The translations under genes and the position numbers were made by a program. The notes below the pieces were generated by a model. It was not told the DNA's origin. It did no database searches and was given only the letters and a program-made list of their open reading frames with translations. 64,000 nt of DNA from Kofleriaceae bacterium (lineage in GTDB: Bacteria > Myxococcota_A > Polyangia > Haliangiales > Haliangiaceae): NCBI GenBank assembly GCA_044230415.1, contig JBGARE010000001.1, positions 433,195 through 497,194 on the forward strand. Direction: 5' to 3'. Of the stretch, positions 4,489 to 59,727 are shown one piece after another (positions within the stretch are counted from its first letter, which is position 1; each line of letters starts with the position of its first letter).

Positions 4489-4554
4489 CGCCGCAGTCGA
4501 CGACGATCAGCCATCTCGAACAATCGGGAGCGCTGCCGCAAAACGCGGCAGGGA

Positions 4555-5319: not shown

Positions 5320-5438
5320 GATTTCTAGGTAACCTCGGGCCTCGTCGCGGCTTACGGCGATCACGCGAGTTTCACGTTTTCGTGAACACCAGGATACGCA
5401 GGCGGTGCTGCGTTTTTTCACGCCGTGCGCGACGGCAA

Positions 5439-6413
5439 CTACTTCGTCAGGACGAGGTAGGCGAGGACCGCGATCGCACCGACGAGGATCGCGATCAGCA
5501 CGAACACGAGCGCGTTGGACTTCGACGGTGCGGCGATGCGCGGATCCATCGGCGCCTGCGCGGCGAAGCCGAAGCTGTTGCTCGACGGCGACGAGCTCGG
5601 TCCCGACGAGAAGCCGGGCGGACGCGATCCACTACCAGGACCCGTCGGCGGCTTCGAGCCGAGCTGCGGACGGCTCGGGGGCTTGAGGTTCGAGCCGCTG
5701 CCGGTGCTGCCCGGATTGCTGCCGGGACCGCTGCCATGCTTCGCGAGCACCGATGCGGGCTGCGTGCTCGTGCGCTGGATCGAAGGCAGCGATGGAACGC
5801 TCGGCTTGGATCCGCCGGAGAGGTTCGGCTGGCTCGCGCGCGAGCGGACCTTCTTGCCGCCGTTGTTGTCGCCGTTGGATCCGCGACCGAGGTCGCGCAT
5901 CGCACCGTTGATCTTGTCGGGCTCGGCGAGCTTCTTCTGGTTCGAGAGGAACGCGAAGTAGCTATCCGGCATGTCGTCGAAGTCCATGACGAGATCGCAC
6001 TCGTCACAGCGACACGTGGGCGGCTCGTGTGGCGGCGGACCCATGTCCGTTGCCTCGACGAGCAGGACCTTCTCCTCGTCGCACTCCGGGCAGAAGTACG
6101 GAACGTAGAAGCTCTTGACGACGCCGTTGCCGGTGAAGTTGTTGACGAGGTTGATCTGCGCGACGATCGCCGGCGAGCACTCGACGAGAACCGAGCGCGT
6201 GCCGTTCGTCTCGAGCTTCGAGAGCCAGTTCACCCAGTCGCGAACGCCGCACGAGTTGATGCGCTCGATCTCGCCGAGATCGATCACGGCTGTTCCCGTC
6301 GGAATCTTGTCGACGAGATCCGCGAGCTCGTTGTCCTCGTCGATAACACCGCCGAGCTTCACGTAGCTCACGTCACCGCGGTGTTGCACCGATGCTTGGA
6401 ACTTCTGGCTCAT
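5439..6413 (-). CDS. STAS-domain protein with a Cys-rich zinc-ribbon-like segment, a Pro/Ser-rich linker and a C-terminal transmembrane anchor
   Basis: The N-terminal 110 aa ([20 protein letters not shown]...[21 protein letters not shown]...[10 protein letters not shown]) resemble an anti-sigma-antagonist/STAS fold. This is followed by CPECD...CRCDECD, a long P/S/G-rich linker and the C-terminal hydrophobic helix [21 protein letters not shown]. Confidence 0.6.
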
Positions 6414-6526
6414 CGTTCCGCCACGTAACGACAGTAGTATTGATTACACCGCACCCGCATAAGCCGCACGCCAAACTCTACTCCGCGGGAACAGAGTGAT
6501 CCAGGATGCCTAAGTAGTTTTGGTGC

Positions 6527-18924: not shown

Positions 18925-18994
18925 TTCTCGATCATACGCTGTCGTACTTCGATAAGCCCGCGACGACCCAAACAGGCGGGCGGACCGCTTCTCT

Positions 18995-21900
18995 GTGTAT
19001 GATTCGTCCGTGGCGGTCGCGACCTATCCGGGCACGGTGTCGCCGTTGCGGGGGCTAGATCCTTTCGGGGAGGCCGAACGCGACGTGTGGCACGGTCGCG
19101 AGACCGAGCGCGACGAGATCGCGAAGATGGTCACGGCCGATCAGTTCCGCTCGGGGCTCGTCTATGGGGAACCCGGTGTCGGCAAGACGTCGCTGGTTCG
19201 CGCGGGCCTGATCCCGTACCTGCGCGATCACGGCATCGTCGCGCTCGCGTGTGAAGATCTGACCCAGCCCGCAGCGAGCTTCGCGCAGGGGCTGTCGGCG
19301 TTCGGAATCCAGCCGAACCCGAACGAGCTGCCGGCGCTGTTCGCGCAGCGCGCGGTGACGAACGCCGTCGCGGGGCAACAGTTCGTGTTCGTCGTCGACG
19401 ATATCGATCTGCTATGCCAGGACGAGCGCGCCGTCGGCGAGCTCAGCGATCTCTATCAGCGCGTGGTCTCGCGCGGCGCGGGTCGTGCGCGATTCCTGTT
19501 CGTCTGCGCGAGCGAGCGACAGCACTTGCTCGGTGCGCTCGAGCGGCGGACGGGCTCGCTGTTCCCGCCATCGTCGCGCTACGAGCTGCAGCGCATCTCG
19601 GTCAACGCCGCGAGCGGCATCTTCGATCGCATGCTGTCGCTGTCGGGCGTCGCGGCGGATCCGGAGCTCGCCGACGCGGTCGTGCAAGGCATCTCGCACG
19701 GCCAGCCGCTCCTCGCTGCGGATCTGCAGATCGCCGGCATGGCGATGCGCGATCTGCGGATCTCGTCGAAGACCGCGCTCGAAAAAGCGGGTGGACCCGG
19801 CGAGCTCGAGTCCGAGTGGCTGCACGAAGCCTGTCGCGCGACCGGAAACGAACGCTCGGGCCTTCGCTTGTGCGCGGAGATCGCCTCGACGACGGCACCA
19901 CGCACCGCGGAGTCGATCGTTCGCAAGGTCAACCTCGATCCCGCGTACACGAGCTCCGCGCTCGTCGTGCTCGAGCAGCGCGGCGTGATCAGCCGCGCGG
20001 ACGCGACGGGAAACACGTGGATGCTGCGCCACGAGGTGCTGACGCCACGCGTGCGCGAGCTGACCGCGCCGGCGCGTGCGGCTGCGCGGCGCGGGTTCGA
20101 TCTGCTCGGCAGCAAGACGCAGGGCAACCAGCGCCTCAAGCTGCGCGAGCTGCGCGCGCTGCGCACCGAGGGCATCGCGGCGGTCACGCCCGAGGAGCAA
20201 GCGGTCGTCGATCGCAGCAAGCGCTATTACATGATGCTCGCGGGCGCGATCGCGGCGGCGCCGATCGTGATCCTGATCTTCATCTGGATCGCGATGCGCG
20301 GGAAGGTCTACTTCGACCTCGAGCCGCACGCCGGTGGTGATCGCATCGTCGTGCGCTACGGACGCGCCGGACTGTCGAGCTTCCACTGGTTGCCGGGCGG
20401 ATTCGGCGACGAGATCGCCGACACGGGGCTCACGCGCCCGATGTCCGCGGCCGAGGCGTGGAAGAAGATCGATGGCCACGACATCGGCGGCAGCGACGAC
20501 GATTGGGACACGCAGCTGCGCTCGTTGATGGCGCCGCAACTCGGTGGGCTCGTCGATTACGCGACCACGGGCAACGAGAAGGCGCTCGATGCGCTCGCGA
20601 AGGCGGCAAAGGATCCCGAGGATCTCGCCGAGCTGCTCACGTCGTTGCGGCCGATCGCGCGCGGCACCGCGAGCGAGGTCGCGCTCGTCGAGAGCGCGCT
20701 CAAGACGCAGTCACCGGCGGTGCAGCGTGCAGCGGTCGCCGTCGCCGGTGCGGCGGCGGGACGCGGCACGGACGCGTATCAAGACAAGCTCAGCGCGGCG
20801 CTGACGTCCTCGGATCCCGAGCTGCGGCGCATCGCCTTTGGTGCGGTGCGCGGACTCGGCGAGCGCGGTGCGGCGCTGTTCGCGAAGGCGCTCGAATCGG
20901 GACCGGATCCCGAGATCAAGCGCGAGCTGATGGTCGAGGTCTCGACGGCGTCGGTCCCCACCGCCGACGACGGCGAGGGCCCATCGGTCGCGACCATGAT
21001 CGGCGTACTGGGTGAACCCGACGCGACGCCCGCGATGCGCGATCGCGCGAAGACGCAGATCAAGGGTGCGCTCGCGAAGAATGCGGATGCAGTCGCCGTC
21101 GAGCTCGTGAAGCTCGTCGCATCGGACAAAGCGCCGGTCGAAGCCCGCGTGTACGCGATCGGCCTGTTGCGCGAGATGGATCCGCTGCCCAAGTCGGCGG
21201 ACCTCGTCGAGAGCGCGCGCACCGCGTTCCAGTCGCGCTCGCCCGCGGTTCGCGCAGCCGCATTGCCGCTCTACGCGAAGGCGGATCCCGAACGCGCCGG
21301 TGGTGACCTCTCGAACATGCTCGAGGACAAGAAGCTCGAGAAGCCGCTGCGCATCGCCGCCGCGCTCGCATGGGGCGAGGTCGCGGCCACGAACAAGATG
21401 GCGGCGCAGAACGCGCTCGATCGCATGCTTACCGACGAGGACTCGGACGTGCGGGCCGCCGCGGCGGAGGCCGCTGGCAAGGCGGGGCGCGCGTACCAAG
21501 AGAAGCTCGTGAAGATGGCGAAGGGCGAGAACTACAACGTCCGTATCGGCGCCGCGCGTGGGTTGGCCGTCAGCGCCGAGAGTGGTGGCAACCCGAGCGT
21601 CGCCGTCGGCGGCATCTTCCAGCTCTGGCGCGAGAAGGGTCGCCCGCGCCGCGAGGCGGCGAAGGTCTACGCGCAGCTCGCGAAGAAGAAGCCCGCGATC
21701 GTGCTCGAGTACCTGTCCGCGGCCGCGCGCACGCCCGAGGACGAGGGCCTGCATCCGATCGGTGTCGAGGGTCTGTGCAACGCGGCCCTCGCCGGAAGCG
21801 CGGGTGCGCGCGCCCAGCTCGCGAAGTCCACCGACGATCCATCCGTCGAGGTACGCAAGCTCGTCATGGCGTGCGTCGCGGACGGTCCCGATCCCGCGAA

Positions 21901-22924
21901 GAACGGCGTGGTGATCGCGGCGAAGCTCGTCGGGGATTCGAGCGCCGAGATCCGCGCCGATGCCGCGCGCGTCCTCGCGCTGTCCGCGGCGAAGGGCAAC
22001 AAGGCCGTGGGGGAGTCGCTCGTGAAGATGCTCGACGATTCGGACCGCGATGTTCGCGTGATCGCGATCCGCGCCGTCGGTGGCCTCGGCGCCGACGCCC
22101 CGAAGACCGCGCAGACCACGATGTCCAAGATGTTCGAGCGCGGCGACGAAGCCGAGAAGCTCGCGCTCCTCCGCGCGGCTCGCCAGATCGGCGCATCGGA
22201 TCTCATCGGCCTCGCGGTCGCCGACTCGTCGCCGATCGTACGCGTCGAAGCCGTCGATGCCGCGCTGTCCTCGGGCCAGCGCGCGAAAGAGACGCTCTCC
22301 GCCGCGCTCGCCGATCCCGATCCGCAGGTGCGCAAGGCCGCCCTCGAGCGCCTCGCCGCGCAGAAGGACAAGCTCGAGCCCGCGGTCATCGAGCGCACCC
22401 TCGCACTCGCCGTGCGCGATCCGAACCCGGAGCTCAGCCAGCTCGCGCTGACCACCGTCGCCCGCGTCGCGCCGAAGGAAGCCGTCGCCGCGCGCCTCAC
22501 GCGCTCGCTCGGCTCTCGCGCGGAACGCGAGCGTGCCCAAGCCGCCGCAGCAGCGATCGGTCTCGTCGAGCGCGACGCCGCGTTGACCTCGCAGCTCCTC
22601 TCGCCGCTGCTGTCGGACCCGTCGCACGACGTTCGCGTCGCCATGCTGCCCGCGCTCGCGGCTGCCTACGCGAAGACCAACGAGCCCGAGAAGCTCGCCG
22701 GTCTGCTCCGTGATTCCGAGACCAACGCGATGCGCCGCATCGTCGTCGCGGCTGCGTTCATCACGCTCGCGAAGACAGATGCCGGCCGCGCCGCCACGGA
22801 GTCGTCGCTCGGCAAGGTCGCGAAGAACGGACCGCCGATGGCGCGTCAGATCGCGAAGCTTGTCGGTGGCCTGATCGGCGGCAAAGCCGACGGGATGGCG
22901 TTCCTTCAGGAACTGATCCCGTAG
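18995..22924 (+). CDS. STAND-like P-loop NTPase with a transmembrane segment and a long C-terminal HEAT-repeat (PBS-lyase-type) array, 1309 aa
   Basis: Walker [23 protein letters not shown] lies near the N-terminus and a Walker B-like [11 protein letters not shown] follows. A hydrophobic helix ([24 protein letters not shown]) sits around residue 410. After it come at least 12 HEAT-like repeats with [12 protein letters not shown] spacing, for example [49 protein letters not shown] and [15 protein letters not shown]. The start codon is GTG. The gene is divergent from the DUF4139 operon, 70 bp away. Confidence 0.75.
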
Positions 22925-36068: not shown

Positions 36069-38264
36069 ATGCGTGTTCGCCTCGCGGCTGTGATGACGGT
36101 GTCTCTGTTGGCCGGGTGGCTCGTGTCGGTCGCGAGCGCGGAGACGTCGAGCGAGCTCCCGGTCCCCGGCGAGGACGACAAGCTCTACGCGTGCAAGAAG
36201 AGCACGGGCTCGATCGAGGTCACGTTCAAGCCGGAGACCGAGGTCAAAGATCTCGTCACGTGGGTGATGGGCTTCACGTGCAAGAACTTCATCTACGCGC
36301 CGCACCTCGTGGCGCAGGGACGCAAGCTGACGATCGTCGCACCGACGAAGATGACCGCGGGCGAGGCGTATCGGTTGTTCCTCGCGTCGCTGTCGACGCT
36401 CGGCCTCACGGTCGTGCCGCAGGGAAACATCGTGAAGATCGTGGAGTCCAACACCGGCAAGCATCTCCCGGTGCCGCTCTACAAGAACGGCGCGCCCGAC
36501 AACACCGACCAGCTCGTGCGCTACGTGATGCGCCCGCAGTTCATGCAGGCCGAGGCGCTCGCGAAGGCGATCGGCAGCGTGAAGAGCGATCCGGGCGAGA
36601 TCACCGTCGCGGGCTCGCTGCTGCTGATCGTCGACTACGGCAGTCACGTGCGCGACATGTTGTCGATCGCGAAGCTCGTCGACGTGCCGAGTGGCAGTGA
36701 AGGCGTCTACACGATCCCGCTCCAGCACGCGGATGCGACGAAGCTGTTGCCGAAGCTGACGGGCATCCTCGGCATGGATGGCAGTGGTGCGCCCGCGGCC
36801 GGCAAAGCCGCGGCACCGACCGACATGGCGCAGGGCGTCGCCCCGTCGAAGATCCTCGTCGACGATCGGACGAACACGCTCGTGGTCGCGGCGAGCGTGG
36901 CCGCGTACGAACGCGTGAAGGCGCTGGTCGAGCGGCTCGATATTCCGCTCGATATCGAGGGCGGCAGCTCGATCCACGTGTATCCGCTCGGCAGCGCGAT
37001 CGCCGAGGAGGTCGCGAAGACGCTCAACGAAGCGATCCAGAAGACGCAAGCGCCCGCGGGCACGTCGAGTCCCGGGCGTCCGGGTGCGCCGCTGCCGGCA
37101 CCGGCCGCGGGCCTCGGTGAAGGGCTCGACGGTCGCGCGCAGGTCGTCGCCGACAAGCCGACGAACAAGCTGATCGTCGTGTCGAGCGGCCGCGACTTCC
37201 TCGCGATCAAGGAGGTCATCAAGGAGCTCGATCAGCCTCGACGCCAGGTCTACATCGAGGCGTTGATCCTCGAGGTCACGCTCGGAAGCGAGTCCGAGTT
37301 CGGGATCAGCGCGCACGGCGGCAAGACCCTCGGCGGACAGAACGGGACGACGCTCGGGCTCGGCGGCATCCAGCTCGGCAATGGCGTCACTTCTCTCGAT
37401 CCGACCTCGCTCGCGAGTGCGACGGGGTTGATCGGCGGGGTCATCGGAAAGGCACTCCCCGGATCCGAGGATCTGTTCGGTCAGAGCATTCCGTCGTTCG
37501 GGATCCTGCTGCAGGCGATCGCGAATCGTTCGAACACCAATGTTCTTTCGGCCCCCAGTATCATCGCGCTGGACAACGAGGAGGCGAAGTACAAGGTCGG
37601 CGTCAACATTCCCTACTCGAAGGGCGTCATTCCGACGACGACGCTGACCCAGAACGCGCCGATCTCGACGAACGTCGATCGCAAGGATCTCGTGCTCGAG
37701 CTCAAGATCAAGCCGCACATCTCGACGGGCGACCAGGTGCTCCTCGAGATCTCGCACGAAGCGAACGACTACGGCGAGGATCTCGCGCTCGGTCCGAGCT
37801 GGGCGACGCGCGGCTTCGAGACGCGCGCCGTCGTGAAGGATCAACAGACGTTCGTGCTCGGCGGGTTGATGCAGGAGAAGGACATCCAGCAAGCACGGCA
37901 AATCCCGCTCCTCGGTGACATCCCGATCCTCGGCAACCTGTTCAAGTACTCGAAGAAGATCAAGAAGAAGACCAACCTGATCATCATGCTCACGCCGTAC
38001 ATCATCAAAGACGACCTCGATCTCGAGGCGATCCGCGAGCGAAAGATGCGCGAGCACACCGAGTACACGCAGTCGAAGCGTACGTTCGAACAGCTGCGGT
38101 TCCAGCCGCGCATCGACTATCGCCGCAAGCGCGGCCTCGTCGAGGACATCAATCGCACCGTGATGCAGGTCGAGACAGACCTCGCGACGCTCGAAGCGCT
38201 GAAGCGTCCCGAGGCGATGAAGTCAGGGCCCGTGCAAACCGCGCCGGCGAGTCAGCCCGAGTAG
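36069..38264 (+). CDS. gspD: Secretin, GspD family (type II secretion / T2SS-like outer-membrane channel)
   Basis: The signal peptide is MRVRLAAVMTVSLLAGWLVSVASA. N0/N1-type domains are present (KDLVTWVMGFTCKNFIYAP..., ILVDDRTNTLVVAAS..., LIVVSSGRDFLAIKEVIKELD). The C-terminal secretin core reads VLGGLMQEKD...IPLLGDIPILGNLFKYSKKIKKKTNLIIMLTPYIIKD. Confidence 0.9.
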   Translation: MRVRLAAVMTVSLLAGWLVSVASAETSSELPVPGEDDKLYACKKSTGSIEVTFKPETEVKDLVTWVMGFTCKNFIYAPHLVAQGRKLTIVAPTKMTAGEAYRLFLASLSTLGLTVVPQGNIVKIVESNTGKHLPVPLYKNGAPDNTDQLVRYVMRPQFMQAEALAKAIGSVKSDPGEITVAGSLLLIVDYGSHVRDMLSIAKLVDVPSGSEGVYTIPLQHADATKLLPKLTGILGMDGSGAPAAGKAAAPTDMAQGVAPSKILVDDRTNTLVVAASVAAYERVKALVERLDIPLDIEGGSSIHVYPLGSAIAEEVAKTLNEAIQKTQAPAGTSSPGRPGAPLPAPAAGLGEGLDGRAQVVADKPTNKLIVVSSGRDFLAIKEVIKELDQPRRQVYIEALILEVTLGSESEFGISAHGGKTLGGQNGTTLGLGGIQLGNGVTSLDPTSLASATGLIGGVIGKALPGSEDLFGQSIPSFGILLQAIANRSNTNVLSAPSIIALDNEEAKYKVGVNIPYSKGVIPTTTLTQNAPISTNVDRKDLVLELKIKPHISTGDQVLLEISHEANDYGEDLALGPSWATRGFETRAVVKDQQTFVLGGLMQEKDIQQARQIPLLGDIPILGNLFKYSKKIKKKTNLIIMLTPYIIKDDLDLEAIRERKMREHTEYTQSKRTFEQLRFQPRIDYRRKRGLVEDINRTVMQVETDLATLEALKRPEAMKSGPVQTAPASQPE

Positions 38265-40129
38265 ACCGACCAGCGGCGCACCTTGACGACGTCGGGCAGC
38301 GCCTTCGACGTGTACTCGAGCTCCTCGACCGTCCCGTTCTGGGCCGCGATCAACTCGGGCACGCCGCTCGCGCGGTAGGTGCTCTCGCTCATCGCGATCT
38401 GGTACCCCTCGGCGAGCGCTTGCAGCTTCGCGGCGATGTTGACCGTACCGCCGAAAAAGTCGGCGTTCGCGTTGAGGCGCACGGCGATGCACGGGCCGGT
38501 GTTCAACGAGATGCGCAGGCGGATCGGCGTGTCCGCGCGCTCCGGGTGAAACGCTTGGTGGATCCGGTGCGACGCGCGCACGGCGTCGACGGGGTTTCCG
38601 AACGTCGCCATCACCGCGTCGCCGATCGTCTTCACCACCGCGCCGCGGCAGTCCGCGACGATCGCGAAGACCTCGTCGAAGTGCCTCTTGATCTCGATGA
38701 ACGCGGCGGGGTCACCGCGCGACGCGTAGAACGCCGTCGACCCGACGACATCGGTGAACAAGAGCGTCTGCTCGCCGACGCCGAGGCGAACATCCGCGCC
38801 GATGTACTCCGCGCTGAACAGATCGCGGAAGTCCTGGAACGAGAGCAGCTTGCCGGCCCGCAGCGCGTGATCGCTCCACTTCGCTTCTTCGATCTGGAAC
38901 TGCGCGGCCGCATCGCCCTGGTTGGAGAGCTCGATCGTCGAGGACGATCGCGCTTTCACGATCGTTCCTTCGGGCAGCAGCTTCCACGTCACCGTGTCCG
39001 CGCCGTCGTCGCCGATATCGAGGTACCAGCCGCCGTCGTGATCGCGCCACACGACATAGCGACCGGGCGCGAGGTTCGGCGTGATCGTCACGGTCTCGCC
39101 GGCGGGTACGTCGACCTGCACGCGAACGTGATCCTTCTTCGCGGGCTCGGCGCTGCAGTACACGACATCGGGCACGTCGCGGATCGACGAGTGGACGTGG
39201 AACGTGACCTCGACGGTCTCGACCCTGTCCGTCGTGAAGTCGACGTCGCATGCATCGCAGTGCGCGTGCGTCGTCAGCGACGACAACGTCTCGAGCTCGT
39301 CGCGCACGCCGCGGCAGTGCGGGCACACGGTGTCCCATGACATGCGCAACAGGCCCTGTCGCGTCGCATGCAGCGCGACGCGCAACAGATCGTCCTCGGG
39401 CAACTTCCACACGCGCGCGCGCTCGCGGATCTGGATGCGATGCAGCTCGGTGTCATCGCCGGTGCGGATCCACTCGATCAGCGCGTCGACGCTCTCGGCG
39501 GGCAAGCCTTCGGCGACGAGCGCCGCGCGTTGCGCATCGAGGCGGGCCCGCGCGTCCTCGGTCAGCGTCGGCGGCGGGAGCATCAGCGCTTCGGGACGCA
39601 GGCGATCGAGTTGCTGCGCGAGCGCGGGGACCACGCGGCGATACGCGCGCTCGATCGTCGGAAACCCGAGCCGGATCGCCGCCGAGCCGAACGCTCCGCG
39701 CGGCACCGCGCCGAAGTAGAGATAGAGGCGGCATCCCGTCGGCGTCGGATCGACGCGGTGGATCGCGTACATCACCTTCATGAAGCCGCGCTCGTACACG
39801 CGCGTGCACGTGAGCCACTGATTCGAGACCCAGTTCCACGGAATCTCGCACCACTCGTGGCGCACGCCGCCGGGCTTCGCGCTTCCCCAGCGCTTGCCGT
39901 CGCGCTCCTCGAACATCATCGCCGCGGTTCCGAGAGCGCGGTTCATGCGCGAGGTGTCGGCGATGTGCGGCCAGATCGCATCGGCGGTGCACGGGAGGTC
40001 GAACGTCCACAACCGCTGGATCCGCTTCTCCTTCGCGTACTGCGTCGGATACGGATGAAGCGCCAACAGCTCGTCGACGGTGAGCGCCGCGCTACCGTTC
40101 CCTGCTAAGGTCGACTTCGAGGTCGCCAT
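38252..40129 (-). CDS. Class III adenylate/guanylate cyclase with an N-terminal SRPBCC-like domain and a Cys-rich (CxxC...CxxC) middle domain
   Basis: The C-terminal catalytic domain reads TLLFTDVVGSTAFYASRGDP...VVKTIGDAVMATFG...RISLNTGPCIAV...FGGTVNIAAKL. The middle has CPHCRGV...HCDACDV. The start is uncertain. An ATG at 40129 would overlap the divergent ATG at 40128 of the next gene, so the true start may be an internal TTG or ATG downstream, for example around 40066 or 39946. Confidence 0.8.
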   Translation of the reverse strand: MATSKSTLAGNGSAALTVDELLALHPYPTQYAKEKRIQRLWTFDLPCTADAIWPHIADTSRMNRALGTAAMMFEERDGKRWGSAKPGGVRHEWCEIPWNWVSNQWLTCTRVYERGFMKVMYAIHRVDPTPTGCRLYLYFGAVPRGAFGSAAIRLGFPTIERAYRRVVPALAQQLDRLRPEALMLPPPTLTEDARARLDAQRAALVAEGLPAESVDALIEWIRTGDDTELHRIQIRERARVWKLPEDDLLRVALHATRQGLLRMSWDTVCPHCRGVRDELETLSSLTTHAHCDACDVDFTTDRVETVEVTFHVHSSIRDVPDVVYCSAEPAKKDHVRVQVDVPAGETVTITPNLAPGRYVVWRDHDGGWYLDIGDDGADTVTWKLLPEGTIVKARSSSTIELSNQGDAAAQFQIEEAKWSDHALRAGKLLSFQDFRDLFSAEYIGADVRLGVGEQTLLFTDVVGSTAFYASRGDPAAFIEIKRHFDEVFAIVADCRGAVVKTIGDAVMATFGNPVDAVRASHRIHQAFHPERADTPIRLRISLNTGPCIAVRLNANADFFGGTVNIAAKLQALAEGYQIAMSESTYRASGVPELIAAQNGTVEELEYTSKALPDVVKVRRWSVYSG

Positions 40130-42260
40130 GCCCACGACAGTGTATCGCAGCTGTCCGCTCTGCGAAGCGACCTGCGGAGTCGCCATCGAGCTCGACGGAC
40201 ACAAAGTCGTCAGCGTGCGCGGTGATGACGCCGATCCCTTCAGCAAGGGCTACATCTGCCCGAAGGGGACGGCGCTCGCCGACCTGCACGAGGACCCCGA
40301 TCGTCTTCGCCGCCCGATGCGGCGCGAGGGCTCGACGTGGATCGAGATGGAGTGGGAGGAGGCGTTCGACCTCGTCGGTACGAAGCTCGCCAACATCCGA
40401 CGCGCGTACGGCCGCGACTCGATCGCCGTCTATCAGGGCAACCCGACCGCACACAACCTCGGCCTCCTCACGTACGGCCAGCTGCTGCTGCGCTCGCTCG
40501 GGACGAAGAACATCTACTCGGCGACCTCGCTCGATCAGCTGCCGCACATGCTCGCGGCGCTGCAGATGTTCGGCAACCAGCTGCTGATGCCGGTGCCCGA
40601 TCTCGACCGCACGGATCTCATGATCTGCCTCGGCGCGAATCCGCTCGCGTCGAACGGAAGCATCATGACGGCGCCCGACATGCGCGCGCGCCTCAAGGCG
40701 ATCCGCGATCGCGGCGGTCAGGTCATCGTCCTCGATCCTCGTCGCACTGAAACCGCGGAGAAGGCCGATCGCCACCTGTTCATCCGCCCGGGGACCGACG
40801 CGGTGCTTCTCCTCGCGATGGCGAACGTGATCTTCGCCGACGGTGTCCGGCCCACGCGCGTCCCGCTCACCGGCGTCGACGAGCTGCGCACCGCCGCGTC
40901 GGCGTGGACACCCGAGCGCGCCGCCGCGATCACGGGCATCACCGCCGACGACATTCGCGAGCTCGCGCGCAAGCTCGCCTCCACACAGCGCGCGGTGCTC
41001 TACGGACGCCTCGGCGTGTGCACGCAGGAGTTCGGCGGTCTCGCCGCGTGGCTGTGTTACGCGCTGAACGCGCTGACCGGCCACCTCGACGAGCCGGGCG
41101 GCCTCATGTTCACGACGCCGGCCGTGGATCCGGTGCCGCTCGCCGCGATGCTCGGCTTCGACGGTGGCTTCGCGCGGTGGAAGTCGCGCGTCAGCGGTAA
41201 GCCCGAGTTCGGCGGAGAGCTGCCGATGACCGCGCTCGCCGAGGAGATCGAGACAGCGGGCAACGGCGAAGAGAAGATCCAGATCCGCGCGCTGATCACG
41301 AGCGCCGGCAATCCCGTGCTGTCCGCCCCCGGCGGCCCGCGTCTCGAGAAGGCGTTCCAGACGCTCGACTTCATGGTGTCGATCGATCCGTACCTCAACG
41401 AGACCACGCGCCTCGCGAACGTGATCCTCCCGCCGACCTCGGTGCTCGAGCGCTCGCACTACGATGTCGCGCTCAACGCGTTCGCCGTGCGCAACATCGC
41501 GAAATACTCGCCGCCCACGTTCGAGCGCTCGGCCGACACGCGCCACGACTGGGAGATCTGTCTCGCGCTGTGGCGTCGCGTCGGTCTGCCGAATCGCCTG
41601 GGCCCCGGCGCGAAGCTGATCGAGAAGCTCGCAAGCTCGCTCGGTCCCGAGGCCGTCATCGACGCGGGCCTGCGCACCGGCCCGTACGGCATGTTCCGCG
41701 GTGGCCTCTCGATCGCGAAGCTGCGCAAGAACCCGCACGGCATCGATCTCGGTGCACTCGAGCCGCGCTTGCCCGCGCGCCTGAACACCAAGGACAAGCG
41801 CGTCCACCTCGCGCCGGCGATCTACCTCGCCGATCTCGCGCGCCTCGAGGCGCGCATGGGCCGCGCGGCGAACGGCCTCGTCCTCATCGGTCGGCGCCAC
41901 CTGCGCAGCAACAACTCGTGGATGCACAACAGCGAGCGCCTCGTGAAAGGCCCGGATCGCTGCACCGTGATGATGCACCCCACCGACGCCGCGGCGCGCT
42001 CGCTCACCGACGGTGCGGTCGCGCGCGTCTCGACGAAGACCGGCGCGATCGAGCTGTCCGTGGAGGTCACCGACACGATGATGCCGGGCGTGGTCTCGGT
42101 GCCGCACGGCTGGGGCCACACGCGCAAAGGCTCGCGCCTCCGCGTCGCCGAGTCCGTCCCCGGCGCATCGGTGAACGACATCGTCGATCCATCGCTGATC
42201 GACGAGCTCTCGGGCACGAGCGCGCTGACCGGTCAGCCCGTCGAGGTGCGTGCCAAGTGA
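40128..42260 (+). CDS. Molybdopterin-dependent oxidoreductase (MopB family; NasA/NarB- or FdhF-like catalytic subunit)
   Basis: The N-terminal 4Fe-4S motif CPLCEATCG...C directly follows the start MPTTVYRS. The roughly 710-aa length is typical. Mo-bisPGD domain blocks are present (VIVLDPRRTETA, ICLGANP) together with a C-terminal beta-barrel domain. Confidence 0.85.
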   Translation: MPTTVYRSCPLCEATCGVAIELDGHKVVSVRGDDADPFSKGYICPKGTALADLHEDPDRLRRPMRREGSTWIEMEWEEAFDLVGTKLANIRRAYGRDSIAVYQGNPTAHNLGLLTYGQLLLRSLGTKNIYSATSLDQLPHMLAALQMFGNQLLMPVPDLDRTDLMICLGANPLASNGSIMTAPDMRARLKAIRDRGGQVIVLDPRRTETAEKADRHLFIRPGTDAVLLLAMANVIFADGVRPTRVPLTGVDELRTAASAWTPERAAAITGITADDIRELARKLASTQRAVLYGRLGVCTQEFGGLAAWLCYALNALTGHLDEPGGLMFTTPAVDPVPLAAMLGFDGGFARWKSRVSGKPEFGGELPMTALAEEIETAGNGEEKIQIRALITSAGNPVLSAPGGPRLEKAFQTLDFMVSIDPYLNETTRLANVILPPTSVLERSHYDVALNAFAVRNIAKYSPPTFERSADTRHDWEICLALWRRVGLPNRLGPGAKLIEKLASSLGPEAVIDAGLRTGPYGMFRGGLSIAKLRKNPHGIDLGALEPRLPARLNTKDKRVHLAPAIYLADLARLEARMGRAANGLVLIGRRHLRSNNSWMHNSERLVKGPDRCTVMMHPTDAAARSLTDGAVARVSTKTGAIELSVEVTDTMMPGVVSVPHGWGHTRKGSRLRVAESVPGASVNDIVDPSLIDELSGTSALTGQPVEVRAK

Positions 42261-42709
42261 CCGCGCTGTACGACAAGATCGGCGCCGACAAGCTGCGCGC
42301 CGTGATCGCCGACTTCTACGATCGCGTGTTCAAGGACGTGATGATCGGCTTCATGTTCCAGGGCAAAGACAAGCAGCACCTGATCGATCGCGAGTGGGAG
42401 TTCGCGGCGAACTTCCTCGGCGCGCCCGACGTGAAGTACACGGGCCGCCCGCTGCGCACCGCGCACGCGAACCACACGATCTTCGGCGGGCACTTCGAGC
42501 GCCGCTTGCAGATCCTGCGCGAGGCGATGCGCGACCACGATGTCGACGCCGACGTGCAGCGATCGTGGATCGATCACACGAACGCGCTGCGCGCGCAGAT
42601 CACGCGCGACAAGGGCAGCGAGTGCAAAGACACGGGCGAAGCGCGCCCGAAGCTCGCGATCGCGAAGCCCGACGAGCCCGACAAGCCGATCAAGCTCGGT
42701 CGCCGCTAA
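42257..42709 (+). CDS. Truncated haemoglobin (2/2 Hb, group I/trHbN-like)
   Basis: The GTG start overlaps the upstream TGA as GTGA. The sequence LYDKIGADKLRAVIADFYDRVFKD...FQGKDKQHLIDREWEFAANFLGAPDVKYTGRPLRTAHANHTIFGGHFERRLQILREAM matches the trHb fold, including the proximal His in the F-helix region and the Y/Q distal site. The length is 150 aa. Confidence 0.75.
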   Translation: MTALYDKIGADKLRAVIADFYDRVFKDVMIGFMFQGKDKQHLIDREWEFAANFLGAPDVKYTGRPLRTAHANHTIFGGHFERRLQILREAMRDHDVDADVQRSWIDHTNALRAQITRDKGSECKDTGEARPKLAIAKPDEPDKPIKLGRR

Positions 42710-42912
42710 GGCGCCGGCGCGGGCTTGGGCTTGTTCACTTCGTAGAGCGCGTGCATCTCTTTGGACATCGTCGCGATCTGCGCCTCGAGATTCGCGATTC
42801 GCTTCTCGAGCGCCTCGATCTTCACCGAGTTGCGTTTGCCGCGCGGACGCATCTCCGCACCTGCTGCACACCCGATCGCCATCACGCACAACACCGCAGC
42901 CACCTTCCGCAT
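42706..42912 (-). CDS. Small coiled-coil lipoprotein (68 aa)
   Basis: MRKVAAVLCVMAIGCAAG gives a signal peptide with lipobox AIGC. A heptad-like helix follows (IEALEKRIANLEAQIATMSKEMHALYE). A GAGG RBS sits about 13 nt upstream. The gene is short, so confidence is limited. Confidence 0.4.
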   Translation of the reverse strand: MRKVAAVLCVMAIGCAAGAEMRPRGKRNSVKIEALEKRIANLEAQIATMSKEMHALYEVNKPKPAPAP

Positions 42913-54781: not shown

Positions 54782-57700
54782 CTAGACCTCCAGGAGCTCG
54801 AGCAGATCGTGGTCGTAGCGGGTGTGATCGGCGGCGGTCTTGCCTTCGTTGTCGCGCAGGCCACGGTTCGCCCCGGCGGCGAGCAAGAGCTCGATCGCCT
54901 TCTTCTCGCGGAACCGCGCGGCGTGGATCAGCGCGGTGGATCCGTCCTCGTCCTGAAGATCGAGGTTCGCGCCTTCTTCGATCAGCAGCTCGACGCAGGC
55001 CGGGTTGTCGACGGCGCACATCAGCGCGGTGCGTCCGGCCGAGTCCTTCGCGTCGACGTGAGCGCCGCGCTTCAGCGCGAGCACGATGTGCGCCTTGTTG
55101 CCCGTCCACGCGGCGTTGATGGCGCACTCCGCGACGGACGCGCCGCGATCGAGGAACAGCTCGAACACCTTCTTCGACTTCGCGGCGGCTGCGTTCTGCA
55201 CCGGTGTCGATCCGGTGGAGTCCTTCTCTTCGAGCTCGCACACGTCGAGGAACTTCTCGACGAGCGCCATCTTGCCGGAGCTCGCACTCTCGGCGAGGCA
55301 GCCGGCGACGGCCGCCTTTCGCGCGAGGAAGAAGTCGACGATGTCCTCGTGACCGCGGCGTGCCGCGAAGTGGATCGCGGTCGCCTTCTTCTCCGTGGTC
55401 GCGTGGATGTCCGCGCCGTTGTCGACGAGCCACGTCACGAGCGACAGTGCATCGTCGCTGTCTTCGACGAGAGCGGCGACCATGAGCGGCGTCTTGCCGT
55501 CCTCGCTCGCTGCGTTGACGCTCGCACCGAGCTCGACGAGCAGCTTCGCGACGTCCTTGTCCGGCGTCTCGAGTGCGCGGCACAACGCGGTCTTGCCGTC
55601 GTCGCTCCGGGCATCGAGGTTGTCGCCGTTCGCGAGGCACAGCGCGGCGATCCGCTTTCGCTCCGCAGCCTTCTTCGGCAGCGCGTCGCGTTCGATCATC
55701 GCGGCGATGCACCCGTCGAGCTTCGCGCCCGCGGCGACGAGCTTGTCGAGGAGCGCGAACTGCTGCTCTCGGGCTGCGATCTGCGCGACGGTGCGATAGC
55801 TACGCGCGTTCGGATCGGCGCCCGCGGCGAGCAAGCGATCGACAATGGTCCAGTAGCTGTAGCCTGCGGCGCGCAGGATCGGCGGCTCGGCATCGGCGGA
55901 CTCCGCGAGGCTCGGATTCGCGCCTTGTGCGAGGGCGAGGTCGAGCGTGGCGAACTGATCGTCGCTGCCGGTCGCCGCGCTGGCGAGCGCCGCTTGCGGA
56001 TCGAGCAGCGTGATCGTGCGGCCCTCGCCGACCCAGGTCTCGATTCGCTCGCGTATCGAGTAGCTCGTGCCGTCGACGGGCGCGCCTTTCGCGAGCAGCT
56101 CCTCGACGAGGCCGGGAAGATCCTCGGCGTAGTCCACCGCGCGTGCCACGAGCGATGCGCCGGGCTTTCCGGTCACCTTCGTTCCGCGATCGAGCAGCAA
56201 GCGCACGAGCGCGGCGTTGCGTGACGACAACGCCGATTCGACGATCAGCGACTCGCCGTGGAGCTCGTTGGGGTCGAAGCCGGCATCGAGGAGCGCGGTC
56301 ACGATCTCGATGTCCTCGCGCCACACCGCGCGCTGGAGCGTGCCGTTCGCGCGCGGCTTCGCGCCGGCGGCGATCAGCGCCTGGACCGCGGCGAGCGTGC
56401 CCGATTCCGCGGCGCGGTACAGCGGCGTGTAGCCGTACTCGTTCAGCACGCGATCGACCTCCGCACCCGCGGCGACGAGCGCCGCGATCGACGCCGGCTT
56501 GCCCGCAGAGGCGGCGAACTCGAGCGGCTCTTTGTAACTGGGCAACGGCTTCGTGAACCCGTGCACCGGCGCGAGACGAGCGATCGTCTCGGTGTCCTCG
56601 TCCTCGATCGCGCGCTGCAGTGCGACCGCCGGATCGACATCCGCGGAGCGCTTCCGCATCAGCGCGACGACGTCGCCGCGGCGTGCTTCCTCGGCGAGCG
56701 CGAACGCGGTGAATCCCGTGCGATCGGCGAGGAACGGCGCTGCACCGCGATCGAGCAACAGCTCGACGATCGCGAGGTGGCCCATGTCCGCGGCTTCCAT
56801 CAGCGCGGTCCAGCCATCGTTGTCGGCGGCGTCGATGTCAGCACCCTTGTCGAGCAACGCGTGGACGATCGCGAGGCGGCCGTACTCCGCTGCTTCGTGC
56901 AGCGCGCGCCGTCTGTCGTCGTTCGCGACGTTTACATTGACCGGGCGCTCCAGCATCGCGAGGACCTCGGCATCCGTGCCGCGTCCCGCGAGCGCGATCA
57001 GCTCGACGAGCTGCAGCGTCGCGCCGCGTGCCTCGAGGAGCGCGGCGACGTCGCGGTGCTTGTTGTTGGTCGCGATGCGATGCGGGACGTTGCCATCCTT
57101 GTCGGCGAGGTTCGGATCCGCGCCGTGATCGAGCAGCACGCGCACGTTGTCGAGGTGCCCTCGATCCGATGCGCGATGCAGCGGCATCCAGCCGTACTCA
57201 CCGGGTGCGTTCGCATCGGGTGCGATCTCGAGCGCTCGCGTCATGCGCTCCGCGTTGTTGCTGTTCTGCGCGACGCCCATGACGATGCCGCTCGTCGTCG
57301 GATCGCCGAAGCCACGGTCCGCGAGTAGCTCGACGACCTCGATGTGACCGCCCGCGCCCGCACGGCGGATGGCGGTGTAGTCGTCGACCTCGTAGCCTTC
57401 GCGGGGGCCGGGCTCGGTCGCGCCGCGGTCGAGGAGCAGCTCTACCACCTCGCGGTGACCGCCGCGCGCCGCTTTGCGCAGCGCCGTGTCCTGATCGTAG
57501 CTGTCGTCGACCCAGTTCACGTCGGCGCCGCGGTCGAGGAGCAGCTCGACGATCTCGCGGTTGCCTTTCTCGGCAGCGGTGATCAGCGGCGGCTTGCGCG
57601 ACTTCGCGTTCATCGCGCCGCGATCGAGGAACAAGCGCACGAGCTCCACGCTCTCGCGCTCGATCGCGCGCTCGAGCGGCGAGTCGCTGTACGAGCGCGA

Positions 57701-58792
57701 ATCGACGGACAGCCGCGCGCCCGCCGCGAGCAAGCGTTTGACTACCTCGACGTGGCCGCGATTCGCCGCGGCGCCGAGCGCAGTCGTGTCGATGATGTTG
57801 CCGAGGTGAATGTCCGCACCGCGCTCGATCAACAGATCGACGACATCCGTCCAGCCATGCTCGGCGGCTTCGATCAGCGCCGTGTCGCGATTGCCTTCGT
57901 GACGCGCGTCGATATTGGCGCCGCGATCGAGCAGGAACGTCGCGATCTCGAGGAGGGCCGCGGGCCTGTCGTAGTTGTTCGCGACAAACGCCATCGCCGC
58001 GTCGAGATCTGCGCCGGCATCCGCGAGGAGCCGCACGATGTCGAGGTGGCCTTCGCGCGCTGCATGCGCGATCGCGGTGCGCCCTTCTCTGTCCGCGAGA
58101 TCCAGCGGGCTCGCCGACGCGGTCTTCGACTTCTTCGGCTTCGCTTTGGACGTCGACTTCGCGGCGGGCTTTGCCTTCGCGGGAACATCGAGCTGCTCGA
58201 CCAACCACGCGACGAGAGCGCGATGATTCCCCGCCGCGGCCAGCATCAGCGCGGACGTGCCTTGCTCGTCGACCACCGCCAGATCGTCGCCGGCCTTCAG
58301 CGCGCGCTTCGCCATCTCGAGATCGCCGGCCGCGACGGCACCGAGCAGCCAGCCGCGGACCGCTGCCTTCTTCTTCACGAGCCAGTCGACGATGTCGCCG
58401 CGCTTCGCCCGCGCCGCGTTGCCGAGGCCGCTCCAGCCGCTCTCGCGATCGTCGATCGATGCACCGTTCTCGACGAGCAGCTCGAGGAGCTCGATCGAGA
58501 CCGTCGCGCACGCGCTCGCGAACACTCCCTCGCGAGCGGCATCGCCCGGACGCTGCCCGAGGATCCACCGCGCGACCTTCTCGGCCTTGTCACCCAGCGC
58601 GCTGCCGAGGAGGTACTCGTCGACCGCTTCGCCGGCCGCGACGATCTCCTGAACGATCGCGAGGTCATCCCGCGCGATCGCTCGATACATCGCGCTCGAG
58701 CGGTCCGACTCGGTGACCGTGGCGATCAGCTTCCGGACCGTGGCGACATCGCCGCCATCGGCCGCGGCTACCCATTCCTCCTGGCTCATCAT
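54782..58792 (-). CDS. Giant ankyrin-repeat protein (about 1335 aa, at least 30 ankyrin repeats)
   Basis: The ankyrin consensus recurs continuously, with G-TPLH-AA--GH--iV-LLL--GAdvn units such as GRTAIAHAAREGHLDIVRLLADAGADLDAA and GWTALMEAADMGHLAIVELLLDRGAAP. The start was chosen at MMSQEEWVAAADGG at 58792. The track ORF runs to 59122 through non-repeat, Arg-rich sequence. Confidence 0.85.
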   Translation of the reverse strand: MMSQEEWVAAADGGDVATVRKLIATVTESDRSSAMYRAIARDDLAIVQEIVAAGEAVDEYLLGSALGDKAEKVARWILGQRPGDAAREGVFASACATVSIELLELLVENGASIDDRESGWSGLGNAARAKRGDIVDWLVKKKAAVRGWLLGAVAAGDLEMAKRALKAGDDLAVVDEQGTSALMLAAAGNHRALVAWLVEQLDVPAKAKPAAKSTSKAKPKKSKTASASPLDLADREGRTAIAHAAREGHLDIVRLLADAGADLDAAMAFVANNYDRPAALLEIATFLLDRGANIDARHEGNRDTALIEAAEHGWTDVVDLLIERGADIHLGNIIDTTALGAAANRGHVEVVKRLLAAGARLSVDSRSYSDSPLERAIERESVELVRLFLDRGAMNAKSRKPPLITAAEKGNREIVELLLDRGADVNWVDDSYDQDTALRKAARGGHREVVELLLDRGATEPGPREGYEVDDYTAIRRAGAGGHIEVVELLADRGFGDPTTSGIVMGVAQNSNNAERMTRALEIAPDANAPGEYGWMPLHRASDRGHLDNVRVLLDHGADPNLADKDGNVPHRIATNNKHRDVAALLEARGATLQLVELIALAGRGTDAEVLAMLERPVNVNVANDDRRRALHEAAEYGRLAIVHALLDKGADIDAADNDGWTALMEAADMGHLAIVELLLDRGAAPFLADRTGFTAFALAEEARRGDVVALMRKRSADVDPAVALQRAIEDEDTETIARLAPVHGFTKPLPSYKEPLEFAASAGKPASIAALVAAGAEVDRVLNEYGYTPLYRAAESGTLAAVQALIAAGAKPRANGTLQRAVWREDIEIVTALLDAGFDPNELHGESLIVESALSSRNAALVRLLLDRGTKVTGKPGASLVARAVDYAEDLPGLVEELLAKGAPVDGTSYSIRERIETWVGEGRTITLLDPQAALASAATGSDDQFATLDLALAQGANPSLAESADAEPPILRAAGYSYWTIVDRLLAAGADPNARSYRTVAQIAAREQQFALLDKLVAAGAKLDGCIAAMIERDALPKKAAERKRIAALCLANGDNLDARSDDGKTALCRALETPDKDVAKLLVELGASVNAASEDGKTPLMVAALVEDSDDALSLVTWLVDNGADIHATTEKKATAIHFAARRGHEDIVDFFLARKAAVAGCLAESASSGKMALVEKFLDVCELEEKDSTGSTPVQNAAAAKSKKVFELFLDRGASVAECAINAAWTGNKAHIVLALKRGAHVDAKDSAGRTALMCAVDNPACVELLIEEGANLDLQDEDGSTALIHAARFREKKAIELLLAAGANRGLRDNEGKTAADHTRYDHDLLELLEV

Positions 58793-58828
58793 CTCCCTTT
58801 CGGACGTAGCTCCCCGTACGATAGCCGC

Positions 58829-59143
58829 ATGAGCGAGGCGGCAAAGAAGTACAGGTCGGCCGTGGTGGAGCGAGTTCAGAGCGGTGATGGCCATGCACGC
58901 GCGGCGGATCGACGCGCCGCGTTCGCGAACGTCGACGTCCCCGCGGGAGCACGCGCGCTGATCGACAAGGTGGCGAAGACCGCGTGGAAGGTGACCGACG
59001 AGGACGTCGCCGCCGCGAAGGCCGCGGGAGTCACCGAGGACCAGGTGTTCGAGCTCGCGGTGTGCGCCGCGATCGGACAGGCTTCGCGCCAGTTCGATTC
59101 GGCCATGGCCGCACTCGACCAAGCTGCAAAGGAGACCCCGTGA
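58829..59143 (+). CDS. Small CMD (carboxymuconolactone decarboxylase/AhpD-like) helical-domain protein, 104 aa
   Basis: MSEAAKKYRS...ALIDKVAKTAWKVTDEDVAAAKAAGVTEDQVFELAVCAAIGQASRQFDSAMAAL resembles the C-terminal helical half of CMD-family proteins. Its stop overlaps the next gene's GTG start as GTGA. The upstream part of track ORF 57344..59143 is antisense to the ankyrin gene and was discarded. Confidence 0.5.
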   Translation: MSEAAKKYRSAVVERVQSGDGHARAADRRAAFANVDVPAGARALIDKVAKTAWKVTDEDVAAAKAAGVTEDQVFELAVCAAIGQASRQFDSAMAALDQAAKETP

Positions 59144-59727
59144 GGCTCTCGGTCCTCGATGGCAAGCACCACACGCTCGGCAAGCGCGCGCTGTTCGTGG
59201 TGATCCGCGCGATGTCGCGCATGCCGGTGCCCGACGTCGTCAAGACGCTGACGTATCGCCCCGACTTCTTCGGCGCGCCGATGAACGAGGTGTTCCAGGA
59301 AGTGATGCGGGGTCCGTCGGAGTGGTCGATCGGCGAGCGCGAGCTGATGGCCGCCTACGTCTCGAAGACGAACGAGTGCGAGTTTTGAACTCGCGCTCAC
59401 GGCGCGGTCGCGTCGAAGGTGCTCGGTAACACGGCGGTAGATGCAGCGCTCGCGGATCTCGCGGACGCGAAGATCAGCGACAAGCTACGCGCGACCCTCG
59501 CGATGCTGCGAAAGGTCACGCGCGATCACGCGTCGATCACCGCGGACGACATGCGCTCTCTGCTGGCGAGCGGTGTCACGCGCGCGCAGATCGAGGACGC
59601 GCTGCTCGTCGGCTGGTGCTTCAACGTGATCACGCGGCTCGCAGACACGTTCGAGTTCCACGTCGGCCCGCAGGCGGCGTTCGACTCGTCGGCGAACATG
59701 CTGCTCAAGCGCGGCTACAAGATCTAA
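59140..59727 (+). CDS. CMD/AhpD-family 'peroxidase-related enzyme' (TIGR01926-like) with an in-frame TGA at 59386..59388, precisely at the second Cys of the catalytic CxxC-xxx-H motif; candidate selenoprotein (CxxU), otherwise a pseudogene
   Basis: Track ORFs 58984..59388 and 59419..59727 are in the same frame and separated only by the TGA. Read through, the protein is ...ERELMAAYVSKTNECEF[TGA]TRAHGAVASKVLGNTAVDAALADLADAKISDKLRATLAML...VTRAQIEDALLVGWCFNVITRLADTFEFHVGPQAAF. This aligns with the family consensus ...LTASVEN-C-x-Y-C-xxx-H..., placing Cys at +0, TGA at +3 and His at +7. Both halves have CMD-like helices. A 5-bp GC hairpin, CGCGC-UCACG-GCGCG, begins 3 nt after the TGA. Confidence 0.5.

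Follow-up and report, generated by a model that had tools for sequence, protein, structure and literature searches.

We analyzed a 64,000-nucleotide stretch of DNA from a Kofleriaceae bacterium (contig JBGARE010000001.1, positions 433,195 to 497,194 of the forward strand), referred to here as the window and used as the frame for all coordinates. The work addresses two adjacent plus-strand genes. The first (40128..42260, +) encodes a 710-aa oxidoreductase of the MopB superfamily, whose members bind molybdenum or tungsten through a bis(pyranopterin guanine dinucleotide) cofactor (Mo/W-bisPGD); the second (42257..42709, +) encodes a 150-aa group I truncated haemoglobin (trHb). A 625-aa nucleotide cyclase gene (38252..40129, −) lies divergently upstream of the pair. 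Comparison with relatives shows that MopB and the globin constitute a single transcription unit, in which a GAGGT element precedes a stop/start overlap that is conserved, and that this two-gene operon is specific to a lineage of Kofleriaceae-type Myxococcota. An earlier interpretation made from the letters of this DNA alone, which we call the sequence-only reading, suggested that the pair, if MopB is an assimilatory nitrate reductase, includes a built-in nitric oxide (NO) guard. The module proves to be well conserved, but the guard of nitrate assimilation is largely refuted by the comparisons reported here, and we tentatively put forward a redox partnership between the two proteins in its place.

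Organization and conservation of the operon

The MopB open reading frame (ORF) extends on the plus strand from an ATG at 40128 to a TGA at 42258-42260, with a product that begins MPTTVYRSCPLCEATCG, and the globin ORF runs on the same strand from a GTG at 42257 to a TAA at 42707-42709, with a third-position GC content (GC3) of 0.94. Direct reading of the sequence confirms that the start codon of the globin overlaps the stop codon of MopB in the tetranucleotide GTGA (42257..42260, +), the two codons having bases 42258-42259 in common. A Shine-Dalgarno-like GAGGTG (42243..42248, +) is located within the 3′ end of MopB, approximately 10 nt ahead of the globin GTG, where it doubles as codons for a conserved V-E-V of the oxidoreductase. 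GAGGT is found at the same junction position in relatives, and we regard the element as the putative ribosome-binding site of the globin gene.

Searching species-representative genomes with MopB yielded 80 loci, and searching metagenome contigs with the globin yielded 48. A 4-nt NTGA overlap joins the two genes in 43 of the 44 two-gene loci (33 ATGA, 9 GTGA with the window included, and 1 TTGA), the remaining locus (L122) having a 2-kb insert between MopB and globin. Because the overlap is kept in 43 of 44 loci covering 57-99% globin identity, it is a conserved feature, beyond chance, and the co-expression and translational coupling that the sequence-only reading had proposed are upheld by it. 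In 40 metagenome loci the contig reaches about 150 bp or more beyond the globin start, and MopB lies directly upstream of the globin in 35 of these. The flanks vary between lineages: one relative, a Kofleriaceae metagenome-assembled genome (MAG; L131), has the synteny of the window, and another (L129) has an SSF transporter and a DUF2911 gene upstream and no cyclase. The MopB-globin pair is intact in both, and is the sole constant element despite the differing flanks.

Among the 80 genome loci, the globin is found beside MopB in only five (L001, L002, L004, L005 and L006). These loci belong to Kofleriaceae/Myxococcota MAGs, with the exception of L004, which is binned as Acidobacteriota, and their MopBs share at least 63% identity with that of the window. 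In a neighbour-joining tree, the globin-linked MopBs and the window MopB form one clade, with an actinobacterium as the sister branch. The MopB family as such is widespread, unnamed and stand-alone; its members in Pseudomonas, Marinobacter, Acidobacteriota and Actinobacteria are approximately 50% identical to the window protein, as are the MopBs of the other 74 of the 80 loci, and public databases label the family only as 'molybdopterin oxidoreductase family protein'. All-against-all clustering of the neighbouring ORFs in the 80 genome loci revealed no cross-phylum operon partner of the family, and no other redox-partner gene is conserved beside it in these genomes.

In the Pseudomonas loci (L029-L080), the gene order is always ornithine carbamoyltransferase, MopB, CGFS monothiol glutaredoxin and a bacterioferritin-like (ferritin-like) gene, a synteny that we take to be that of the PA3534 region. 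A glutaredoxin gene also lies downstream of MopB in two unclassified gammaproteobacterial MAGs (L027, L070). A literature search found no functional data on the MopB family (PA3534) or on grxD, and likewise none on Rv0197, a possible orthologue.

The MopB oxidoreductase

The first protein belongs to the MopB/Mo-bisPGD (DMSO reductase) superfamily by its domains, its fold and its N-terminal FS0 [4Fe-4S] motif, with Pfam matches to Molybdop_Fe4S4 (PF04879), Molybdopterin (E = 2e-33) and Molydop_binding (E = 1e-22). The enzyme has no twin-arginine translocation (Tat) signal and is therefore cytoplasmic. Below the level of the superfamily, no NCBIfam model reaches its cut-off. The sequence-only reading had suggested a NasA/NarB-like assimilatory nitrate reductase and had named placement among the Nas and formate dehydrogenase (Fdh) classes as a check; the superfamily assignment stands, and the protein falls in neither class. 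NasC (NF047855) scores 174.7 bits against a cut-off of 1100, NasA (NF041323) scores 104.8 bits against 1000, and Fdh-alpha (TIGR01591) scores 245.9 bits against 666. PhsA (189 bits, cut-off 694) and QrcB are among the top NCBIfam matches, and among PDB sequences the protein is closest to PsrA, a polysulfide/thiosulfate reductase. The signature of type II, NarG-like DMSO reductases is absent, with 115.6 bits for DMSO_red_II_alp (TIGR03479) against a cut-off of 984.75 and no beta subunit gene nearby. The identity of a formate dehydrogenase was rejected, the Sec/Cys140-His141 and Arg333 residues being missing in addition to the low score given above.

The active site was addressed through a family alignment of 81 members from Myxococcota, Pseudomonadota, Acidobacteriota, Actinomycetota, Bacteroidota, Chloroflexota, Gemmatimonadota and others. 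The alignment contains 119 invariant residues, including S131, S134, D136, Q137 and the blocks RSNNSWMHN and PHGxGH. The FS0 motif CxxCxxxC...C is invariant in 81 of 81 members, and its residues C9, C12, C16 and C44 are the only invariant cysteines of MopB; their codons, together with that of Lys46, lie at 40152..40259 (+). Because these four FS0 ligands are the sole invariant cysteines, family conservation excludes a thiolate-ligated site of the Nas, Nap, Fdh, Psr or Arr type.

A candidate ligand is provided by the invariant motif S131-A-T-S134-x-D136-Q137-L-P (40518..40544, +). The Mo-ligating Cys/Sec of PsrA, HDCR FdhF and FdhH aligns with Asp136 (GAT at 40533-40535) in all three phmmer alignments, Sec140-His141 of FdhH (U140-H141) being matched to D136-Q137. 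Arg333 of FdhH, in the RGQNNVQG motif, aligns with Thr330, so that the RGQ arginine of Fdh, Nap and Nas is missing. The local alignment with DMSO reductase (DMSOR) begins after the ligand and so offers no choice between Ser and Asp. Asp136 is the most probable predicted Mo ligand, with Ser131 or Ser134 as less likely alternatives, and the predicted metal ligand is in either case a carboxylate or hydroxyl side chain, with no thiolate.

Structural placement with Foldseek against the PDB was dropped as uninformative, the AlphaFold2 (AF2) model (pLDDT 82, pTM 0.88) being equidistant to all MopB classes, with a template-modelling (TM) score of approximately 0.75 (TMq 0.73-0.78) and about 20% identity to Fdh, Arr, Nap, FdhH, acetylene hydratase, Psr and DMSOR alike. 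The only low-confidence stretches of the model (residues 106-109, 170-181, 295-298 and 592-609; window ~40443-41954) coincide with the family-invariant NPTAHN, NPLASNGS, GRLG and RSNNSWMHN; they are probably cofactor-binding loops that the model leaves unresolved when cofactors are omitted.

The truncated haemoglobin

The second protein matches PF01152 (Bac_globin) with E = 2e-15 and 57.5 bits, against a cut-off of 21, and its nearest PDB sequences are Mycobacterium tuberculosis HbN and other group I trHbs. Its AF2 model consists of a core (residues 1-116, pLDDT >90) and a disordered, basic tail (117-150), and Foldseek superimposes it on group I trHbs with TMt 0.8-0.89 and a root-mean-square deviation of 1.4-1.8 A. 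In the HbN register, the globin keeps PheB9 (F20), TyrB10 (Y21), PheCD1 (F34), LeuE7 (L42) and the proximal HisF8 (H70, HbN His81; codon at 42464..42466, +). The description of the second gene as a 2/2 group I globin with a proximal histidine is thereby corroborated, and these five haem-pocket residues, of the kind whose loss it had named as a refuting outcome, are present.

Other pocket positions depart from HbN. GlnE11 (HbN Gln58) is replaced by Glu46 (codon at 42392..42394, +), the PheE15 tunnel gate is replaced by Ala50, and HbN ValG8 probably corresponds to Arg83, within an invariant F-E-R-R of helix G. The protein has no N-terminal extension and therefore no pre-A motif, and its AB and EF Gly-Gly hinges read G9-A10 and G55-A56, the first Gly alone being kept in each. 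The residue set of HbN-type NO dioxygenases (the TyrB10/GlnE11 pair, the PheE15 gate and the pre-A motif) is thus incomplete. Because the distal site differs in having Glu at E11, Ala at E15 and probably Arg at G8, the NO-dioxygenase activity of HbN, the trHbN role to which the sequence-only reading had pointed, is not simply transferable; for this globin it is a lead and not a conclusion. As judged from these residues, the protein is a haem-competent yet atypical trHb.

When cluster representatives at 50% identity were searched exhaustively, 264 globin clusters were recovered at E < 1e-10. In the 119 single-domain representatives, Glu-E11 occurs in 101, His-F8 in 118, Phe-CD1 in 116 and a Cys just past helix H, within a GSEC motif, in 95; position B10 holds Tyr in 57 of them and Val in 43. 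The corresponding residue of the window globin is Cys123 (codon at 42623..42625, +), which is invariant in close homologues. An alignment of 51 sequences shows no variation at E46, H70, F80, R82 and R83, and close relatives share a basic C-terminal [IV][KR]LG[RK][RK] tail. Taken as a whole, these signatures assign the globin to a distinct trHb1 (group I) subfamily. Our literature search found no paper on Glu-E11 trHbs, and nothing on the subfamily's E11 Glu, F-E-R-R, GSEC or basic-tail features.

Members of the subfamily also occur in other settings. Natural fusions join the Glu-E11 globin to tandem rhodanese domains with a CGSGVTAC active-site loop (P0264), to GloB-like metallo-beta-lactamase (MBL) and HAGH_C domains (P0293, P0370) and to DUF480 (P0320), partners that hint at a role of the subfamily in thiol or sulfane-sulfur chemistry. 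An apparent fusion of the MopB C-terminus to a globin (P0262) was rejected as a frameshift artefact. Distant globins adjoin MTHFR and LysRS genes in three MAGs, in one of which suf genes lie upstream, and are located between GlnRS and an MFS transporter in two others. Proteins carrying 5-12 tandem truncated-haemoglobin domains related to the window globin were also observed (P0242, 1882 aa; P0265, 1386 aa; P0270, P0311, P0333 and others).

The divergent cyclase and the gene context

The divergent neighbour had been called a cyclase, and its domains agree: an N-terminal domain of unknown type is followed by DUF5939, in which a CxxC...CxxC motif is present, and by a nucleotide cyclase domain of class III. 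The start codons of the cyclase and MopB overlap head to head in a CATG (40127..40130, on opposite strands). The sharing of a site by the two ATGs had been recognized correctly in the sequence-only reading, the letters around it had not: the local sequence is GCCATGCC and not GCCATGGC. Amino acid conservation across five homologues starts approximately 16 residues past the chosen cyclase ATG, which backs that start, and independent gene calls in L131 give the same 2-nt overlap of cyclase and MopB. Head-to-head CATG overlaps are also seen at L001, L004, L083, L093, L128 and L131. Because the overlap leaves no intergenic space, the promoter and leader of each gene must lie inside the other. The putative ribosome-binding site of MopB is a GAGG (40119..40122, +) in the cyclase coding sequence, 5 nt ahead of the MopB start codon. 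A promoter and terminator scan gave nothing exceeding chance, and an Rfam scan detected no molybdenum cofactor (Moco) riboswitch and no other RNA.

Of the 15 metagenome loci that extend to the MopB N-terminus, 9 have the cyclase as divergent neighbour of the MopB-globin pair, as do L001, L002, L004, L005, L006 and L131; six MopB-globin loci have no cyclase (L092, L095, L098, L102, L104 and L129). In three further loci (L120, L121 and L135) the cyclase is directly divergent to a globin, with MopB absent; L135, for instance, carries a globin at 5001-5468 and a cyclase at 3082-4962 (−), which are respectively 68% and 65% identical to those of the window. Since the cyclase adjoins the globin at these three loci without MopB, the cyclase-globin link is independent of MopB. 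The conserved unit is cyclase / (MopB) globin, and its common element is the globin.

The wider context provides no link to nitrogen metabolism. No nas, nir, nar or narK gene, no nitrate, nitrite or NO gene, no gene for an electron-donor subunit and no NO-regulator gene is present in the 64-kb window. The ±10-kb flanks of the pair in the relatives L129 and L131 are equally free of them, and none recurs in the 80 loci. The search for nirBD, nasDE or an NO regulator recommended in the sequence-only reading consequently came back empty in the window and in these ±10-kb flanks. Sulfur genes and a NarH-like gene are likewise absent from the window and from the flanks of L129 and L131.

Discussion

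The first gene encodes a monomeric Mo-bisPGD enzyme of the cytoplasm that has a single [4Fe-4S] cluster and a predicted non-thiolate ligand, and the second a divergent group I trHb with HisF8, TyrB10, GluE11 and an Arg-Arg pair in helix G. Their NTGA overlap implies that both proteins are translated from one mRNA at coupled rates. Truncated haemoglobins carry no reductase domain of their own and depend on an electron donor from outside. By analogy with the docking of NapB haems on NapA, we suggest, with low confidence, that MopB and the globin form a co-translated redox pair in which electrons are exchanged between the surface-near FS0 cluster and the globin haem. MopB is equipped for electron exchange, since its FS0 motif is complete and Lys46 is in place. 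The enzyme could hold the haem ferrous for O2 or NO (or sulfide) chemistry, or the haem could act as the electron sink of MopB; the pairing would answer the globin's need for a reductase or the enzyme's need for a sink, respectively, and the divergent DUF5939 cyclase would probably be part of the same gas/redox response. The redox pair is supported by the overlap in 43 of 44 loci, by the adjacency in 35 of 40 metagenome loci, by the single globin-linked clade and by the retention of haem ligand and fold. A more specific version, in which the trHb is a dedicated haem redox subunit of an Asp-ligated cytoplasmic MopB and forms with the cyclase a three-part module for sensing and removing gas/redox stress, appears unlikely at present.

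Several observations weigh against the redox pair. The MopB family occurs without the globin in 74 of the 80 sampled genomes, and the same globin type occurs without MopB, beside the cyclase (L120, L121, L135), beside MTHFR or GlnRS in other phyla, or fused to rhodanese and GloB-like domains. One MopB that falls within the globin-linked clade (L003) has no globin. No genuine MopB-globin fusion was found, P0262 having been the sole candidate, and overlaps of 4 nt, which many high-GC operons contain, are no proof of physical interaction. As to L003, a Kofleriaceae MAG in which MopB (6001-8103) is 72% identical to that of the window and no globin follows it, a minus-strand gene abuts MopB, which suggests that the globin was secondarily lost or relocated.

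The best-surviving alternative, which we consider possible but doubtful, is that the globin is a protective accessory that scavenges O2, NO, peroxide, sulfide or a reactive by-product and exchanges no electrons with MopB. The hosts are aerobic soil bacteria, and Mo-bisPGD and Fe-S enzymes are often oxidant-sensitive, as is well established; the MopB-globin coupling is conserved, and in one MAG, relatives of the globin have Suf genes for Fe-S assembly as neighbours. Group I trHbs are moreover known NO and O2 scavengers (PMC3820574, PMC6277429). Set against this, the orthologous MopBs of other aerobes (Pseudomonas, Marinobacter, actinobacteria) do without a globin, GluE11 and AlaE15 differ from the residues of proven NO dioxygenases, and a free scavenger would still require a reductase, none of which is encoded nearby.

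A second alternative shifts the emphasis to the cyclase, with the globin as a gas or redox sensor acting with the DUF5939 protein and MopB as a co-regulated output or passenger. We judge it improbable, even though the cyclase divergently adjoins the globin at three loci that have no MopB, is present in most MopB-globin loci and shares through the head-to-head start overlap a control region common to both transcription units, and haem-regulated cyclases are well known elsewhere. The six MopB-globin loci without a cyclase speak against a sensor module, as do the housekeeping neighbours of distant subfamily globins, among which there is no cyclase; truncated haemoglobins are, moreover, not established as trans-acting sensors.

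A sulfur pair, in which MopB would act on polysulfide, thiosulfate or sulfite and the globin would bind or oxidize sulfide or persulfide, seems more improbable still. The PsrA, PhsA and QrcB matches of MopB point in this direction, as do the rhodanese and GloB-like fusions of the subfamily and its conserved Cys. However, the Cys ligand, Tat export, and FeS and membrane subunits of PsrA/PhsA-type enzymes are all missing in the present case; the Fdh-alpha hidden Markov model scores above PhsA; and the fusions amount to 3 of 150 representatives, with no sulfur genes near the window pair.

That two unrelated genes merely share an operon, with the overlap a product of genome compaction, is very improbable: high-GC bacteria join genes most commonly by ATGA and GTGA overlaps, and each gene is found without the other in other lineages, but adjacency and exact junction persist in dozens of diverged lineages despite changes in the flanks. 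Least probable of all is the reading of MopB as an assimilatory nitrate reductase with a globin guard that returns NO to nitrate: the NasA/NarB-like architecture (cytoplasmic, ~700 aa, N-terminal 4Fe-4S cluster), the well-established reduction of nitrate by the Asp-ligated Mo site of NarG and the existence of nitrate reductase-globin partnerships are outweighed by the NasC and NasA scores, by the lack of a Cys ligand and of the RGQ arginine motif, by the absence of nirBD, nasDE, narK and an NO regulator from the 64 kb and the relatives' flanks, and by the MopB orthologues of 74 other genomes, which stand alone with no nitrogen context.

Pairs of a Mo enzyme and a globin provide the closest precedents for the operon. 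In Bradyrhizobium, Bjgb is a single-domain haemoglobin encoded in the operon narK-bjgb-flp-nasC. This system (PMC6965051) is joined by NR-THB1 of Chlamydomonas (PMC6321594) and by NR2-2/2HbN of raphidophytes (PMC9837059). In mycobacteria, trHbN belongs to the nitrogen regulon (PMC6277429). As in these nitrate reductase-globin systems, a Mo enzyme and a haemoglobin are made together here and the globin lacks a reductase domain of its own; unlike them, with their proven nitrate reductase, flavin reductase and nitrate transporter, the window has a MopB that fails every Nas test, no flavoprotein or transporter, and a different globin pocket. The globin resembles the M. tuberculosis NO dioxygenase HbN (PDB 1idr) in its 2-on-2 fold, in PheB9/TyrB10/PheCD1/LeuE7/HisF8 and in approximately 30% identity, but differs in GluE11, AlaE15, probably ArgG8, Gly-Ala hinges, the lack of pre-A and an extra 34-residue tail with conserved GSEC and KLGRR motifs.

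The oxidoreductase shares domain order, size, the FS0 Cys motif, a Lys between FS0 and pterin and a TM score of about 0.75 with FdhH/FdhF, NapA, NasA/NarB and PsrA; in contrast to them, it is only about 20% identical, has Asp in the place of Cys/Sec, has no equivalents of His141 and Arg333, and lacks both a Tat signal and a partner subunit. A carboxylate Mo ligand, as predicted here, is found in type II DMSO reductases (NarG, PcrA, EbdA; Asp-ligated Mo), but their size of ~900-1200 aa, His/Cys3 FS0 and NarH-like beta subunit are absent. The resemblance to NapA-NapB is one of analogy only: a haem protein docking at the FS0 side of a monomeric MopB would be common to both and is hypothetical in the present case, and NapB is a periplasmic di-haem cytochrome c, unlike the cytoplasmic globin considered here.

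No paper on a MopB-truncated haemoglobin pairing was found in our literature search. The coupled Fe-S/Mo partner is a concrete candidate for the in vivo reductant of group I truncated haemoglobins, and the sole genomic clue to date to a large cross-phylum MopB family comes from its association with globin and cyclase in Kofleriaceae. If the more specific version, with the trHb as dedicated haem subunit, is real, it would provide both a native electron donor for a trHb and the first functional handle on the MopB family from Pseudomonas to Actinobacteria.

Other features of the window

Convergent to the globin gene is a 68-aa ORF (42706-42912, −) whose stop codon overlaps that of the globin; its product has a lipoprotein-type signal (…AIGC) and a coiled-coil segment. 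The proteins encoded elsewhere in the window include eCIS-core, TPR, ABC, STAND, PEP carboxylase, kinase, MMPL, radical-SAM, secretin and DsbA-like proteins, together with phosphodiesterase, esterase, methyltransferase, ankyrin, AraC and MBL proteins. Large genes unrelated to the operon encode an eCIS_core-domain protein (457-4506, −), an nSTAND1-HEAT NTPase (18956-22924, +) and a 1485-aa ankyrin-repeat protein (54782-59239, −).

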